In this document: positions 34,143 through 46,706 of the stretch, in pieces
Numbering within the stretch: the first letter of the stretch is position 1
Layout of the letters: the number at the start of each line of letters is the position of its first letter
Origin: Coleofasciculus chthonoplastes F2-STO-03
Lineage (GTDB): Bacteria > Cyanobacteriota > Cyanobacteriia > Cyanobacteriales > Coleofasciculaceae
DNA: 64,000 nucleotides
Direction of reading: 5' to 3'
Assembly: GCA_040222015.1 (NCBI GenBank)
Contig: JAVJWO010000072.1
Location: 15,564-79,563, forward strand
Notes under the pieces: model-generated
Told to the model about the DNA's origin: nothing
Databases searched by the model: none
Seen by the model: only the letters and a program-made list of their open reading frames with translations
Position numbers and translations under genes: made by a program

Positions 34143-36166
34143 GGATGGAAATAGGTATAAATATCTTCGGCTAAACGCGAACCAATTCCCGGAACTTGAG
34201 CAAGCTGTTGTACCGATGCTTCTCGAATATAATCAATAGACCGAAAATGTGCCAATAGCTGTTTTTGACGCGCAAATCCTAATCCGGGAATTTCATCTAA
34301 GCGAGAACGGCGTAACGTTTCACTGCGTTGTTTTCGATGGAAACTCACAGCAAAACGGTGCGCCTCATCGCGTAAACGCCGCAATAATTGTACCCCTGGT
34401 TGTTCAGCGTCGGTGGGGAGGGGAAAGGATTCACCCGGGAGAAAAATTTCTTCCCGTTGTTTAGCTAAACTTACTACCCGAACTTTATCTAACAGGTTCA
34501 TATCCTGTAATACCGCAACCACGGCGGAGAGTTGTCCTTTACCACCATCAATCATAATTAAATCGGGAAAATCATCAGAGATTCCCTGTTTTCTGGGAAG
34601 GGCGGGTTTAGTTAGGGTATCGGTTTGTGGCGAAATGGTATCTGTTAAACCCGCCCCTACATCGGGGTTTTCCTGATGGTTGGGAAGGGCGGGTAAGGTA
34701 AGGTTATCGGTTTGCAGCGAAATGGTATCTGTTAAACCCGCCCCTACGTCTTTATATTGGCGAAAACGGCGACGAATCACTTCTGCTAAACTGGCAAAAT
34801 CATCGGAATGACCAATCGTTACCGTAGGATTTTTTATCTTATAATGTCGATAATGTTGCTTCGCTTGCGTCCCATTAATAAACACCACCTGAGACGCTAC
34901 CGGATTAGCTCCATGAATGTGAGAAATATCATACCCTTCAATCCGATGGGGTAAATCGGGTAAATCTAAAATTGCAGCTAAATCTTGCATCGCTTGGCTA
35001 TTGCGGTCAGCTAATTTCTGAGTTCGTTCTAACTCATACTTCGCATTCCGTTCCACCATTTCAATTAATTCAGCTTTGGTTTGCCGTTGGGGAACTAAAA
35101 TAGTAACTTTGCGCCCTTTCCGTTCACTTAACCAATCTGCCAATAAGTCTGTATCTGTTAACTCATGCTGGACTAAAATCTCACTGGGAATTTCTACAGC
35201 GTCAACGGTTTGATAATGATCTTCTAATACTCGTTGTAAAATTGCCCCTAGTTCAATTCCCCCTGATGGAACTTCAGCAAAAAATCCCAATCGCCCCACC
35301 AACCGACCGGCACGAATCTGGAATAATTGAATACAAGCATGATGGGCATCTGCCGAAAGCGCGATCGCATCCCGTGATACGGTATCATCGGGTAGGGCGA
35401 CTTTTTGGTCAGCACTGAGGGCGTTCAACCCTTTAATCTGATCCCGAATTTTCGCCGCTAACTCAAAGTTCAGCGATTCCGCTGCTTGTTCCATAGTCTG
35501 AGTTAGGATATCAATCAGTTCCCCCGTTCGCCCCTGAAACACCATCGCTATTTTTTGCACGGTATGGCGATACTCCTGCGGTGAAACAAGCTGTTGACAA
35601 ACCCCAGGACAACGCCCAATATCATAGTTAAGACAGGGACGGTCTTTAAACAGGGGACGGGGGCGCTGACGTTGGGGAAAAATCTGCTTGAGTAGGTGTA
35701 ATGTACTTCGCAGCAAGCCGACATCTACATAAGGACCATAATAGCGATCCTTTTCTTTTCTCAGGTTACGCTTGCGGGTAATAAAGATACGCGGATAGTC
35801 TTCTGACCAAGTAATACAAATATACGGATATTTCTTATCATCTTTGAGCAGCACATTGAAATACGGCTGATGCTGCTTGACTAAATTCGCTTCTAATGCT
35901 AGGGCTTCCGCTTCGGTATCGGTAACAATAAACTCAATCTCCGCCACCTGACGCACCATCATGGCGATCCGGGGACTCAGGGGTTGGGCGTTACGGAAAT
36001 AAGAACGAACGCGCGATCGCAGCTTCTTTGATTTACCAATATAGAGGATGCGATCGCTCCCGTCACGCATTAAATAAACCCCAGGTTCAGCCGGGATTTC
36101 TTTCAGGCGACGTTCTAGGCGATCGGGATTATTGACTAGAGGGGTTACTTTAGCCGAGGATATCAC
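34139..36166 (-). CDS. uvrC: excinuclease ABC subunit C with an in-frame REP duplication
   Basis: GIY-YIG (GVYLM..YIGKS), [23 protein letters not shown], HhH C-terminus. Confidence 0.96.
34595..34750 (-). repeat. two tandem family C REP-like elements (87 bp period) inside uvrC
   Basis: GGGCGGGT..AAACCCGCCCCTAC twice; encodes [20 protein letters not shown] twice. Confidence 0.88.
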
Positions 36167-44738: not shown

Positions 44739-45461
44739 TTAGCCTTTCACAGCTTGACCCGCTTGCTGATCTAAAAGCCACCACAATTCCCCTTGAGGCT
44801 GAATGAACCGCGCCGGATAGGTCAAGGGATCAGCTTCATCGGCAAAGATTTGAGCCAACGCAGGTTGCTTTCCGGCTCCCGCCACCAGAAACATCACGCA
44901 ATGGGCTTGGTTAATCAAGGGTACAGTAAAAGTTATCCGAGGTTGACCATCTTTATTGCCCACAGTCACCCGGCGATCGCAAACCTGTAGCGCTTGGGTA
45001 TGAGGAAATAAAGATGCCGTATGGGCGTCGTCACCAATGCCCAGTAAAATCACATCAAATTGGGGAAACTCGCCAGCAGCTACACCAAAGAACTCCCCCA
45101 GTTCAGTATCATGCTTCGAGGCGTCGGCTTCCGGAGACTCCCCGTCTGTGGGAATTGGGTGAATATTCGTGGGTGGGATATCAACGTGATCCAACCAAGT
45201 CTGACGCGCCATCGCTTGATTGCTATCCGGGTGATCGGCTGGGACATAGCGTTCATCGCCCCAAAAGATGTGCAGTTTATCCCAGGGTAGATCCTGGCTA
45301 GCTAGGGCTTCATAGAGGGGCTTTGGTGTACCGCCCCCGGCTAAAGCCAGGGTACAGCGCCCTGAGCGTTGGATTGCCTCCTGTATCTTTGTTAGGACAA
45401 CATCACGCGATCGCTCAATCAGCGCGGCTTGATCAGGCAAAACTTCGACAATTTTCTTCAT
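44739..45461 (-). CDS. pgl: 6-phosphogluconolactonase
   Basis: LAGGGTP, FWGDERYVP, DAHTASLFP; GGAGGA RBS. Confidence 0.95.
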   Translation of the reverse strand: MKKIVEVLPDQAALIERSRDVVLTKIQEAIQRSGRCTLALAGGGTPKPLYEALASQDLPWDKLHIFWGDERYVPADHPDSNQAMARQTWLDHVDIPPTNIHPIPTDGESPEADASKHDTELGEFFGVAAGEFPQFDVILLGIGDDAHTASLFPHTQALQVCDRRVTVGNKDGQPRITFTVPLINQAHCVMFLVAGAGKQPALAQIFADEADPLTYPARFIQPQGELWWLLDQQAGQAVKG

Positions 45462-45637
45462 CAATCTGTGATCCTCCTCCTCAACAGGTTACTTGGTCTA
45501 GCCGACCATTTCATTAGATAATTGCAGTAGACCCCTAGGGTAATCATTCAAATATCCATGAGTTACTATGGGCAAGTCATACATGAACCCTAATTGTCCC
45601 ATACAGTATGGGGTACACTCGGTTCTAGGGTAAAAAA

Positions 45638-45832
45638 TTCCACTACCCCACTGTGTAGACGGCGGGGATGGCTAAGGACTTGCCTTAGTCACGCAAGTGT
45701 TGAATAGACCCCAAGCTGCTAGCTGGTATGTACTTCCAGATACTTCCCTAGCCTGGATGATTATCTACCAACCCTTAGGTCTGGGTTCGTCTAAAAGGTG
45801 GAGATCTTGCTAGTAGTGGTATCGTTGGGACT
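45638..45832 (+). ncRNA. omega RNA / HEARO-like scaffold (IscB/IsrB type), stand-alone
   Basis: TTCCACTACCCC start, multiple paired stems, TCCAGATACTTCCCTAGCCTGGA hairpin whose UCCC loop can pair with GGGA at 45827-45830. Confidence 0.72.
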
Positions 45833-45947
45833 AAAACAGGTTTTGCAGGTTCCTGGGTTTTTCACCATTAAAAACCTGCTTGTAAACCATAGTGGGCGCG
45901 ATTTCGGACCCAACGTAAGACGATGGGGTATCCGTCGCGGAATCAGG
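45638..45947 (+). mobile_element. non-autonomous IS200/IS605 OMEGA-type mini-element
   Basis: terminal hairpins at 45646-45667 and 45897-45939, no TIR or TSD, no ORF, immediately followed by ATGAA. Confidence 0.68.
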
Positions 45948-46706
45948 ATGAAAAGTAGTACTATGTATTCGTCGTTCGCGGGTTTAGCACTTAAAATAGT
46001 CGGACTGATCATGATCCTATCGTCCCTGTTGGATTATCTGATCCTGATTATTCCCTCTCCTGGTGTTAGCCCCCTTCAGAATGAATGGCAGCTTAATTTA
46101 ACCACCCAGCTTGTTGATCGAGGTGTTATCCCGATGGTGGGAATTGCCTTTTTGATAGCAGGATATTGGATCAGCAATAACAGTGGTGGCTCATTACCGG
46201 AGCGAAAATCCTCAATCACTGACTTGAGATTTTGGGCATTTTTACTCTCCAGCCTATTGGGTTTACTCTTCCTGTTGCTTGTCCCCTTGCACTTTAACAA
46301 TGTCCGCATCCAAAGCAATCAAGCGATAGAACAGATTACTCAGCAAGCCCAGCAAGCTGAAACCCAACTGGAAACGCAAGTTCAGCAAATTGATACTCTG
46401 CTTCAAGATCCACAACAGCTAGAACGACTAGACCAAGCCATTGAAAGCGGTCAAGCTCAAGGAGAGCAACTCCAGCGACTCCAGGCACTCCGAGAACAAT
46501 TGCAGGCGCTCAGAACAGATCCCGAAGCGATCGCTCAAAGAACAGAGCAAGCTCAGACTCAAATCCGGGGTCGTAAACAAGAACTTGAGCAACGCGCCCG
46601 AACTGAGGCATTAAAAAGAGGTATCCGCATCGGTTTAAGCAGCTTACTCTTAGCCATTGGCTACAGTATCATTGGCTGGATGGGATTGCGGAACTTGAGC
46701 AGTTAA
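45948..46706 (+). CDS. HpsJ family membrane protein
   Basis: TM-TM (QLVDRGVIPMVG)-TM, Q-rich coiled coil, TM; conserved neighbourhood with DUF502-nusB-ftsY. Confidence 0.75.
   Translation: MKSSTMYSSFAGLALKIVGLIMILSSLLDYLILIIPSPGVSPLQNEWQLNLTTQLVDRGVIPMVGIAFLIAGYWISNNSGGSLPERKSSITDLRFWAFLLSSLLGLLFLLLVPLHFNNVRIQSNQAIEQITQQAQQAETQLETQVQQIDTLLQDPQQLERLDQAIESGQAQGEQLQRLQALREQLQALRTDPEAIAQRTEQAQTQIRGRKQELEQRARTEALKRGIRIGLSSLLLAIGYSIIGWMGLRNLSS

Follow-up and report, generated by a model that had tools for sequence, protein, structure and literature searches.

A probable protein-less derivative of an IsrB-encoding transposon before the first ATG of hpsJ in Coleofasciculus chthonoplastes

Introduction

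Among the described mobile elements that most closely resemble the one investigated in this study is ISC1-1_MA from Microcystis aeruginosa, whose N/ATGA target (in targets and junctions a slash marks the insertion point) was defined by comparison with the empty site, and ISC1 elements from a species of the genus that contains our relatives were assigned to TT/GG and TT/GA targets (Kapitonov, Makarova and Koonin 2016, PMC4810608). The protein DtIsrB was characterized as a nickase that relies on an NTGA target-adjacent motif (TAM) located 3' of its target (Hirano et al. 2022, PMC9581776). In IscB and IsrB systems, the guide is provided by the 5' flank outside of the element, so that transcription of the guide-containing omega RNA starts outside as well (Meers preprint, 10.1101/2023.03.14.532601; Hirano et al. 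2022, PMC9581776). Elements of the IS200/IS605 type are described as being kept in co-orientation with upstream transcription, and cleavage of the vacated donor joint by the nuclease would restore the element (Meers preprint, 10.1101/2023.03.14.532601). Here we describe a discrete 310-bp insertion in a 64,000-nucleotide stretch of DNA from Coleofasciculus chthonoplastes F2-STO-03 (contig JAVJWO010000072.1), which we refer to as the window and whose numbering is used throughout. The insertion, at 45638-45947, is located in the intergenic region between pgl and hpsJ directly before the first ATG of hpsJ. With a probability of about 85%, we interpret it as a protein-less element derived by deletion from an ISC1 transposon (IS200/IS605 superfamily) that encoded IsrB. 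This makes it akin to the palindrome-associated transposable elements (PATEs), and the copy is probably old, its RNA probably no longer functioning as a guide.

Results

The insertion is defined by its absence from orthologous sites. Using the region 45466-45960 as BLAST query against 41 genomes, comprising the window's own (G000) and those of 40 relatives, we found matches in all eight congeners (G001-G008; L and C numbers denote loci and own-genome contigs, respectively). The G001 sequence (L006) aligns with 45300-45637 and then directly with 45948-46400, displaying the junction GGGTAAAAAA/ATGAAAAGT where the window reads ...GGTTCTAGGGTAAAAAA/TTCCACTACCCC...GGAATCAGG/ATGAAAAGT, with slashes corresponding to 45637/45638 and 45947/45948. 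The G001 allele, ...CTCGGTTCTAGGGTAAAAAA/ATGAAAAGTAGT, equals exactly the window minus the element, and the site is also empty in G006. Since the two end bases of the element differ, the junction is unambiguous and devoid of a target duplication. Such an empty allele, the precise insertion 5' of ATGA without target-site duplication (TSD), and the match of a guide with adjoining TAM to the empty site had all been anticipated in an analysis of the window sequence by itself (the original prediction), and each finds its counterpart in G001, where the 20-nt flank and the following ATGA are identical. In the occupied site, TTCC is found in place of the TAM.

The sequence and coordinates proposed for the element match the window, and the assertion that it contains no terminal inverted repeat (TIR), TSD or nuclease open reading frame (ORF) was borne out, with no ORF being confined to the 310 bp. 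The only frames of at least 50 residues touching the element are an upstream in-frame extension of hpsJ (45798-46706) and a 73-residue frame on the minus strand (45791-46012), which extends out of the element into hpsJ. The features of the region are as follows:

45618-45637, plus strand: 5' flank in guide position, CTCGGTTCTAGGGTAAAAAA, located outside of the element and adjoining position 1 of the omega RNA model; 20 of 20 nt identical to the empty allele of G001
45638-45837, plus strand: omega RNA core, the equivalent of the HEARO model, defined by a covariance model match (R2), collinear alignment with 14 relatives and covariation
45697-45814, plus strand: segment absent from the orthologous copy in G002 (L005 locus), an internal deletion variant
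45838-45890, plus strand: remnant of the 5' end of isrB with hairpin, defined by alignment to eight IsrB ORF starts
45891-45947, plus strand: right end with respect to the orientation of isrB, containing a subterminal hairpin (45897-45939) followed by the 8 nt GAATCAGG, defined by DNA folding and by copies at other loci
45948-45951, plus strand: ATGA target and TAM tetranucleotide, containing the first in-frame ATG of hpsJ and present in the empty allele
45948-46706, plus strand: hpsJ, 252 residues, intact, located 3' of the element (NCBIfam NF050014)
44739-45464, minus strand: divergent gene of the 6-phosphogluconolactonase family, upstream context (Pfam PF01182, 248 bits)

The identification of the 5' 200 nt as an IsrB-type omega RNA is carried by comparative evidence; the fold of the whole region, taken alone, is only mildly unusual (z = -2.5). 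In congeners and more distant cyanobacteria, 45691-45773 finds BLAST matches of 75-81% identity directly upstream of ORFs, and 12 of the 20 adjacent ORFs tested encode proteins with an RRXRR (PF14239) but no HNH domain, ranging in length from 372 to 417 residues, in line with the RRXRR-linked relatives that had been expected. To avoid circularity, the covariance model R2 was built from 13 omega RNAs linked to IsrB ORFs only, with exclusion of the window copy and of every ORF-less copy. In the 64-kb window, R2 detects a single match, which coincides with the core on the plus strand and scores 107.5 bits (E 1.1e-30) over model positions 1-202, the model being covered end to end with all helices present. 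The window core and those of 14 relatives (alignment A1) are collinear over about 200 nt, and 34 of the 50 pairs predicted by RNAalifold for this alignment display compensatory changes. With the pseudoknot included, 94.9% of the cells of A1 pair, a value that falls to 35-50% once the 3' partners are shifted by 1-3 columns; none of 500 shuffles attains the observed values. The core is composed of the helix P1, two 5' hairpins, a long-range stem, a hairpin with the conserved loop ACUUCCCUA and a 3' GGGAC, which acts as pseudoknot partner.

The main stems listed in the original prediction are recovered in this consensus. P1 formed by ATTCCACT and AGTGTTGAAT, CCCCACTGT/ACGGCGGGG and TGGCTAAGG/CCTTAGTCA occupy columns common to the 14 relatives, as do GCTGCTAGC/GCTAGTAGT, TCCAG/CTGGA and AACCC/GGGTT, and the UCCC/GGGA pseudoknot of that prediction is 96% paired across the 15 sequences, with one covarying pair (C-G in eight, U-A in five). 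The window copy contains a U.U mismatch at this covarying pair and a C.U mismatch in P1. The fit of the 5' 200 nt to R2, to A1 and to the RRXRR-linked relatives sustains the earlier proposal of an ORF-less element carrying an IsrB-type omega RNA. The linked proteins are IsrB and not IscB, as illustrated by the protein encoded on the own-genome contig C178, which matches the solved structure of DtIsrB (8dmb) over residues 2-370 (E 2.6e-47) and IscB structures only over about 115 N-terminal residues.

The 3' third of the element discloses its descent. When aligned to the ORF starts of eight IsrB elements, 45838-45890 corresponds to the ribosome-binding site, the start codon and the first approximately 17 codons of isrB. 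The start codon is changed from ATG to ATT at 45867-45869, as it is in the other protein-less subfamily described below, and the G-K-P codons that precede the PLMP motif have their counterpart in GTAAACCAT at 45882-45890. The remnant contains a hairpin (GCAGGTT, 45845-45851, paired with AACCTGC, 45873-45879), whose loop harbours the former ribosome-binding site and start codon and whose stem covaries between subfamilies (ACACGAA/TTCGTGT, GCTGGTT/AACCAGC and GCAGGTT/AACCTGC); folded by itself, this piece gives no significant value (z = -1.0). As noticed in the original prediction, a terminal hairpin is located at 45897-45939; it is stable as DNA, with -13.7 kcal/mol on the plus strand (z = -3.5; 1 of 200 shuffles as stable) and -13.0 kcal/mol on the minus strand (z = -3.35). 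At the left end, a covarying hairpin is found at A1 columns 9-17/31-39, the fold of this end alone as minus-strand DNA not being significant (z = -1.5). The same right end is present in copies at other loci (L009 and L020-L022). The remnant of the isrB start together with the whole omega RNA and the right end thus define an internal-deletion derivative that has kept the whole guide-RNA gene. In ORF-bearing elements (for example L053, L047, L048, L013 and C178), the omega RNA ends 3' in a hairpin that is likewise conserved and covarying and whose loop holds the ribosome-binding site and ATG of isrB, which suggests a coupling of RNA folding with isrB translation.

The remaining congeners display different states of the same site. 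In G007, the whole region is present at 96% identity, with element and flanks measured together, and in G002 (L005) the element occupies the same site without 45697-45814, its match extending over 45300-45696 and then directly over 45815-46400. The insertion is thus common to three species-level genomes. The possibility that 45697-45814 is a second, nested element, as might be proposed from its absence in G002 and the many 80-nt matches, was considered and rejected; the segment is conserved omega RNA core and it is therefore G002 that carries a deletion. At the site in G004 (L007, around 1672-1685), we find 14 extra nt (GCATAATCAGAATG) containing AATCAG as in the end of the element, and in G005 (L011, 1663-1729) a 67-nt stretch starting with TTCCA, which shares only AAAAAATTCCA with the window and of which no other copy was found in any sequence fetched. 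Both could derive from the element or have arisen independently. The alignment of G003 diverges after GCTAGGGT, and in G008 the orthologous locus was not found. In G007 and G002 (L004 and L005), four extra bases, TTCA, are located between the end of the element and ATGA (...CAGGTTCA ATGAAAAG); the window, two environmental contigs and other copies of the subfamily do not contain them. After an excision, such bases would keep the former guide-matching flank apart from the TAM, and they alter the spacing between AGG and ATG.

Concerning further copies, the own genome contains 18 matches to RRXRR (PF14239) and 17 to Y1_Tnp, and none of the latter is linked to the window element. The BLAST search that had been proposed for finding copies in the own genome recovered, apart from the element, no more than a degenerate 3' fragment at C85, and copies were revealed by a covariance model, R1, which detects 14 strong ones: six next to full IsrB ORFs, three next to truncated ORFs and five without ORF (the window element and those on C160, C208, C210 and C83). 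In the nine genomes of the genus, R1 detects 163 copies. A search for an ORF-bearing parent, likewise proposed, succeeded insofar as IsrB-linked homologues were found, and a near-identical ORF-bearing parent was not among them.

Whether every copy abuts ATGA had been posed as a question in the original prediction. In 62 copies from G000, G002 and G008, the right end was recognisable in 39, the other 23 being truncated, divergent or located at contig ends, and the following tetranucleotide is ATGA in 25 cases, ATGG in five, TTGA in four, TTGT in two and ACGA, ATCA and ATAA in one each. The right-end signature used for this tally excludes the target and it replaced ends defined by breaks in BLAST homology, whose alignments ran through the common ATGA. 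In a second protein-less subfamily (starting with TTCACCAACC and ending with ...AAGGAGTTTCG), ATGA adjoins the element at every site examined. Two near-identical protein-less copies, in G002 (L061, 2360-2654) and G001 (L064, 2334-2628), reside 7 nt apart at adjacent ATGAs of the same locus, with junctions ...ACACACTC/element/ATGATTGATGAAAAAT and ...ACACACTCATGATTG/element/ATGAAAAAT, respectively. They are independent, recent insertions, each of which displays the empty site of the other. A second class of IsrB elements (own-genome C162, C170 and C179, and L111, L112, L131-L133 and L136), whose omega RNA starts with TTCATG or GTCAAC, carries the right end ...CCCGCGAATATG, followed by TTGA or TTGT rather than ATGA, and in a small subfamily (L092-L095 and L089) ATGG follows. 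Both look like TAM variants within one genus.

Several copies document other fates of the family. A 5'-truncated member of the window element's subfamily, matching 45779-45947, is found upstream of a pilM-like gene (PF11104) at a conserved locus in at least seven genomes of the genus (L020, L021, L022, L057-L059 and L002, the latter being C85:59464-59564 of the own genome), and in the own-genome copy the ATGAA that follows has decayed to AGAAA. On C210 of G000 (35327-35523, minus strand, and about 65 nt downstream), an omega RNA core and about 20 isrB codons (...VPVVDPQGKP) are fused directly to the ATGA start of a gene, without a right end of the element. The product of this downstream gene begins with MKLTRKESVHRRHRRVRR and the upstream gene ends with ...KAGKAGKK; we take the two flanking genes to be rplR and rplF, in accordance with an L6 match at the corresponding locus L056. 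At L023 (550-609), a match to the Rfam family NsiR1, a nitrogen stress-induced small RNA (74 bits), is located about 630 nt upstream of a HEARO/IsrB element.

The gene downstream of the window element is assigned to NCBIfam HpsJ_like_B (NF050014) with 299.1 bits, compared to a cut-off of 260, in an alignment that begins at residue 8, and its 252-residue product has no Pfam match. Its candidate start codons are the ATGA at 45948 and an in-frame ATG 15 nt downstream (45963).

Discussion

In our interpretation, the element would have retained the complete omega RNA scaffold, the first approximately 50 nt of isrB with ATT in place of its start codon and the hairpin-bearing right end, while the rest of the nickase gene was lost. 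It would have inserted precisely 5' of ATGA by the sequence-specific, TSD-free route of its family and, since it does not contain a gene itself, the Y1 transposase TnpA that presumably catalysed this step must have been provided in trans. Being located in sense orientation between the promoter region of hpsJ and its coding sequence, the element could be transcribed by read-in, which would yield an RNA composed of the 20-nt guide and the scaffold. The guide and the ATGA TAM would specify the element-free allele, as demanded by the homing model of the family; this geometry is observed, and the activity that it implies is conjectural. In its present form, the copy would be inherited passively within the 5' leader of hpsJ. 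We consider it an old relic because of its sharing among three species, the internal deletions, the mismatches in P1 and the pseudoknot, its low identity to ORF-linked RNAs and its rare right end. The 118-nt deletion in the G002 orthologue is a sign of such decay. In a contig from an environmental RNA library (run X1, record 2), 45649 is followed directly by 45772, so that 122 nt of the core (45650-45771) are missing before the sequence continues into hpsJ; the contig probably originates from a strain with an internal deletion other than that of G002.

Several observations weigh against this interpretation. The search with the Rfam model HEARO (RF02033), suggested in the original prediction, did not return the element: at the gathering threshold no Rfam family matches anywhere in the window, and at E <= 10 HEARO was found neither in 701 nt (45400-46100, where only a chance match to sR43 appeared) nor in 221 nt (45630-45850). 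The membership thus rests on the covariance models built in this analysis. The relatives of the element score 32-51 bits with HEARO, whose gathering score is 83 bits, and align over its full length in 6 of 11 loci. HEARO RNAs are found upstream of 5 of 10 RRXRR loci of the own genome at 114-136 bits. Of these five, R1 detects L027 alone, a bona fide HEARO, and with no more than 21 bits. Since HEARO misses the element and R1 barely scores true HEAROs, the RNA of the element is, as judged by these scores, a divergent subclass beyond the curated threshold.

Other points on the same side concern the parent, the expression and the age of the element. With respect to the core, the best ORF-linked omega RNA (L060) is 72% identical, a further ORF-less copy comes closest with 76%, and identities to the omega RNAs beside five IsrB ORFs of the own genome (C103 not among them) amount to 45-57%. 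The exact right-end pattern is found at only five loci in 185,579 species genomes, all of which belong to the same genus, are ORF-less and had already been seen. A scan of 45380-46050 did not reveal a consensus sigma-70 promoter, although with 1.2 matches expected by chance it is uninformative. Both junctions are spanned by contigs from environmental RNA libraries, the left one by X2 (45546-45907) and the right one by X4 (45807-45999), which is a weak hint of transcription; the contigs provide neither strand nor RNA ends and, as carry-over of DNA is possible, cannot prove it. The empty alleles could either be ancestral or result from precise excision. Finally, we infer that the copy is old and inert, and the copies of the window and of G007 are both full length and score above 100 bits with R2, compared to only 24 bits for the copy in G002.

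The latter scores bear on the alternative that survives best, although we consider it unlikely, namely that the element is a still-active, trans-acting guide-RNA gene, whose transcript would be loaded by an IsrB of the own genome and would nick the vacated ...AAAAAA/ATGA after excision by TnpA, leading to homing. This would be consistent with the full-length scaffold, in which all helices are present and which attains 107.5 bits with R2, with a guide and TAM that match the empty allele, with the six full-length IsrB ORFs beside omega RNAs of the same class and the 17 Y1_Tnp matches of the genome, and with the RNA-library contig that spans the junction of guide and scaffold. It has precedents in standalone omega RNAs that work with IscB, cited in Hirano et al. 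2022 (PMC9581776), and in the omega-RNA-encoding PATEs discussed in the Meers preprint (10.1101/2023.03.14.532601). However, the identity to omega RNAs beside the compared IsrB genes of the own genome is only 45-57%, P1 and the pseudoknot contain mismatches, orthologous copies tolerate core deletions of 118 and 122 nt, and the subfamily comprises few copies, with no ORF-bearing member found. Moreover, IsrB is a nickase and, in the available portions of the cited work, homing was demonstrated for IscB and TnpB but not for IsrB. The borrowing of IsrB in trans that the original prediction had put forward looks doubtful at present.

Still less probable in our view is a co-option of the inserted RNA as structured 5' leader that regulates the stability or translation of hpsJ. 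The sense position between the promoter region and the first ATG, the maintenance in three species-level genomes, the RNA-library contigs that connect the element to hpsJ and the TTCA of G002 and G007, which shifts the spacing between AGG and ATG, would all be in line with such a function, but the hpsJ orthologues of G001 and G006 do without the element, internal deletions are tolerated and the approximately 96% identity to G007, measured for element and flanks together, shows no sign of extra constraint.

Two further explanations are in our opinion close to negligible. A TnpB-type mini-element of the IS200/IS605 kind read from the minus strand, whose guide would be the left flank in reverse complement and whose TAM would be TTCAT, would be allowed by geometry alone, since the minus-strand layout TTCAT/element/TTTTTTACCC is that of TnpB elements as generally known for IS605, but every gene-bearing homologous copy carries isrB in plus orientation directly 3' of the RNA, both covariance models match the plus strand only and it is on this strand that the structure covaries. 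Equally remote is the view that the sequence belonged to the ancestral intergenic region and was lost from G001 and G006, for which it could be argued that the polarity was assigned without a phylogeny and that the 14 nt of G004 (AATCAG) and the 67 nt of G005 (TTCCA) could be leftovers, whereas homologous copies with the same ends reside at unrelated loci, the boundaries coincide with position 1 of the omega RNA model and the ATGA target of the family, and two unrelated deletions would need identical exact ends.

Beyond the assignment of the element as a decayed IsrB derivative, its location raises the question of whether ATGA-targeting IsrB elements are adapted to land on start codons, an idea that we put forward tentatively and consider doubtful at present. 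The target ATG would often be an initiation codon, which would place the element into a transcribed sense 5' leader, where an outside promoter for the guide is supplied, while the coding sequence would stay intact and the right end would often bring in a GAGG or GGAG, 5-8 nt ahead of the ATG, to take over from the displaced ribosome-binding site. In 8 of 25 ATGA-flanked copies, the target ATG opens a frame of 60 codons or more, compared to 545 of 3,350 random ATGA sites (16%), and a ninth ATGA-flanked copy precedes a metallothionein of 55 residues. The enrichment over this crude background is modest. In Pfam searches with the nine ORFs, the alignments start close to the beginning of the profile for FolD (residue 9 at profile position 1), a response regulator (10 at 1), the metallothionein (3 at 1), a Mur ligase (26 at 2), a PNP oxidase (35 at 2) and a TPS-domain protein (51 at 1), which marks the N-termini of these proteins as true ones; only a below-threshold match was obtained for L103. 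About one third of the ATGA-flanked copies are located on real start codons. Many right ends contain GAGGT or AAGGAG 5-8 nt before the target ATG, as in ...CACGAGGTAAAGCG/ATG and ...AAAGGAGTTTCG/ATG; such Shine-Dalgarno-like ends are not found in all copies, and that of the window contains only AGG directly beside the ATG. We did not find this idea in the available portions of Kapitonov et al. 2016 and the Meers preprint or in a brief literature search. If it were true, protein-less copies could persist for long in front of host genes, as leaders that do no harm or even have a regulatory role, and the placement at start codons offers a testable lead on how guides are transcribed without killing host genes.

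In comparison with known systems, the element resembles ISC1 transposons, whose IscB1 is equivalent to IsrB, in its assignment to the IS200/IS605 superfamily, the absence of TIR and TSD, the subterminal hairpins, the N/ATGA target and the cyanobacterial host (PMC4810608). The termini of ISC1 transposons, 5'-GT/TT ... CG-3', are also found in ORF-bearing relatives of the element, and the TT/GG and TT/GA targets of other ISC1 elements resemble the TTGA-flanked class of the genus (PMC4810608). In contrast to ISC1-1_MA, the window copy does not contain an isrB ORF and its right end is ...GGAATCAGG instead of the ...CG shared by ISC1-1_MA and the main class of the genus. What it shares with the DtIsrB system is an RNA about 300 nt long whose guide is located 5', a scaffold of several helices with conserved pseudoknot and a 3' TAM of the type NTGA/TTGA/ATGA (PMC9581776). 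The partner of that RNA is an HNH-less nickase of about 350 residues (PMC9581776), to which the own-genome relative described above is matched with E 2.6e-47. As a difference, the RNA of the window is known from its sequence, and the correspondence of its helices to those of DtIsrB (SL4/nexus pseudoknot) is proposed without alignment to the DtIsrB RNA.

Like PATEs, the element is protein-less and keeps transposon ends and omega RNA, and like them it would rely on TnpA and a nuclease in trans and depend on transcription of its guide from outside, with retention favouring transcribed, co-oriented sites (10.1101/2023.03.14.532601). Published PATEs were described mainly for TnpB and IscB elements of Geobacillus, whereas the element of the window is derived from IsrB and has kept a fragment of the isrB start. 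Its likeness to HEARO (RF02033) concerns P1 closing two hairpins, the long-range stem and a hairpin with a CUUC..CAG loop. For HEARO RNAs, insertion ahead of ATGA or GTGA was reportedly noted by Weinberg in 2009.

Already known are thus ISC1/IsrB transposons and their ATGA target, omega RNAs and their TAM, protein-less PATEs with omega RNAs whose guides depend on host transcription, and standalone omega RNAs, the latter reportedly described by Altae-Tran in 2021. What our study adds is a clear example for which the empty allele is available, an account of what the deletion removed and spared, and a class of omega RNAs that is missed by the curated HEARO model. The element documents the decay of an IsrB transposon to a form consisting of the guide RNA only, in a deletion that spared the whole omega RNA including the hairpin over the former isrB start. 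The large cyanobacterial class of omega RNAs to which it belongs, with 163 matches in nine genomes, escapes HEARO, with none of six HEARO-matched relatives reaching the threshold, which matters for annotation and for the mining of compact RNA-guided nickases.

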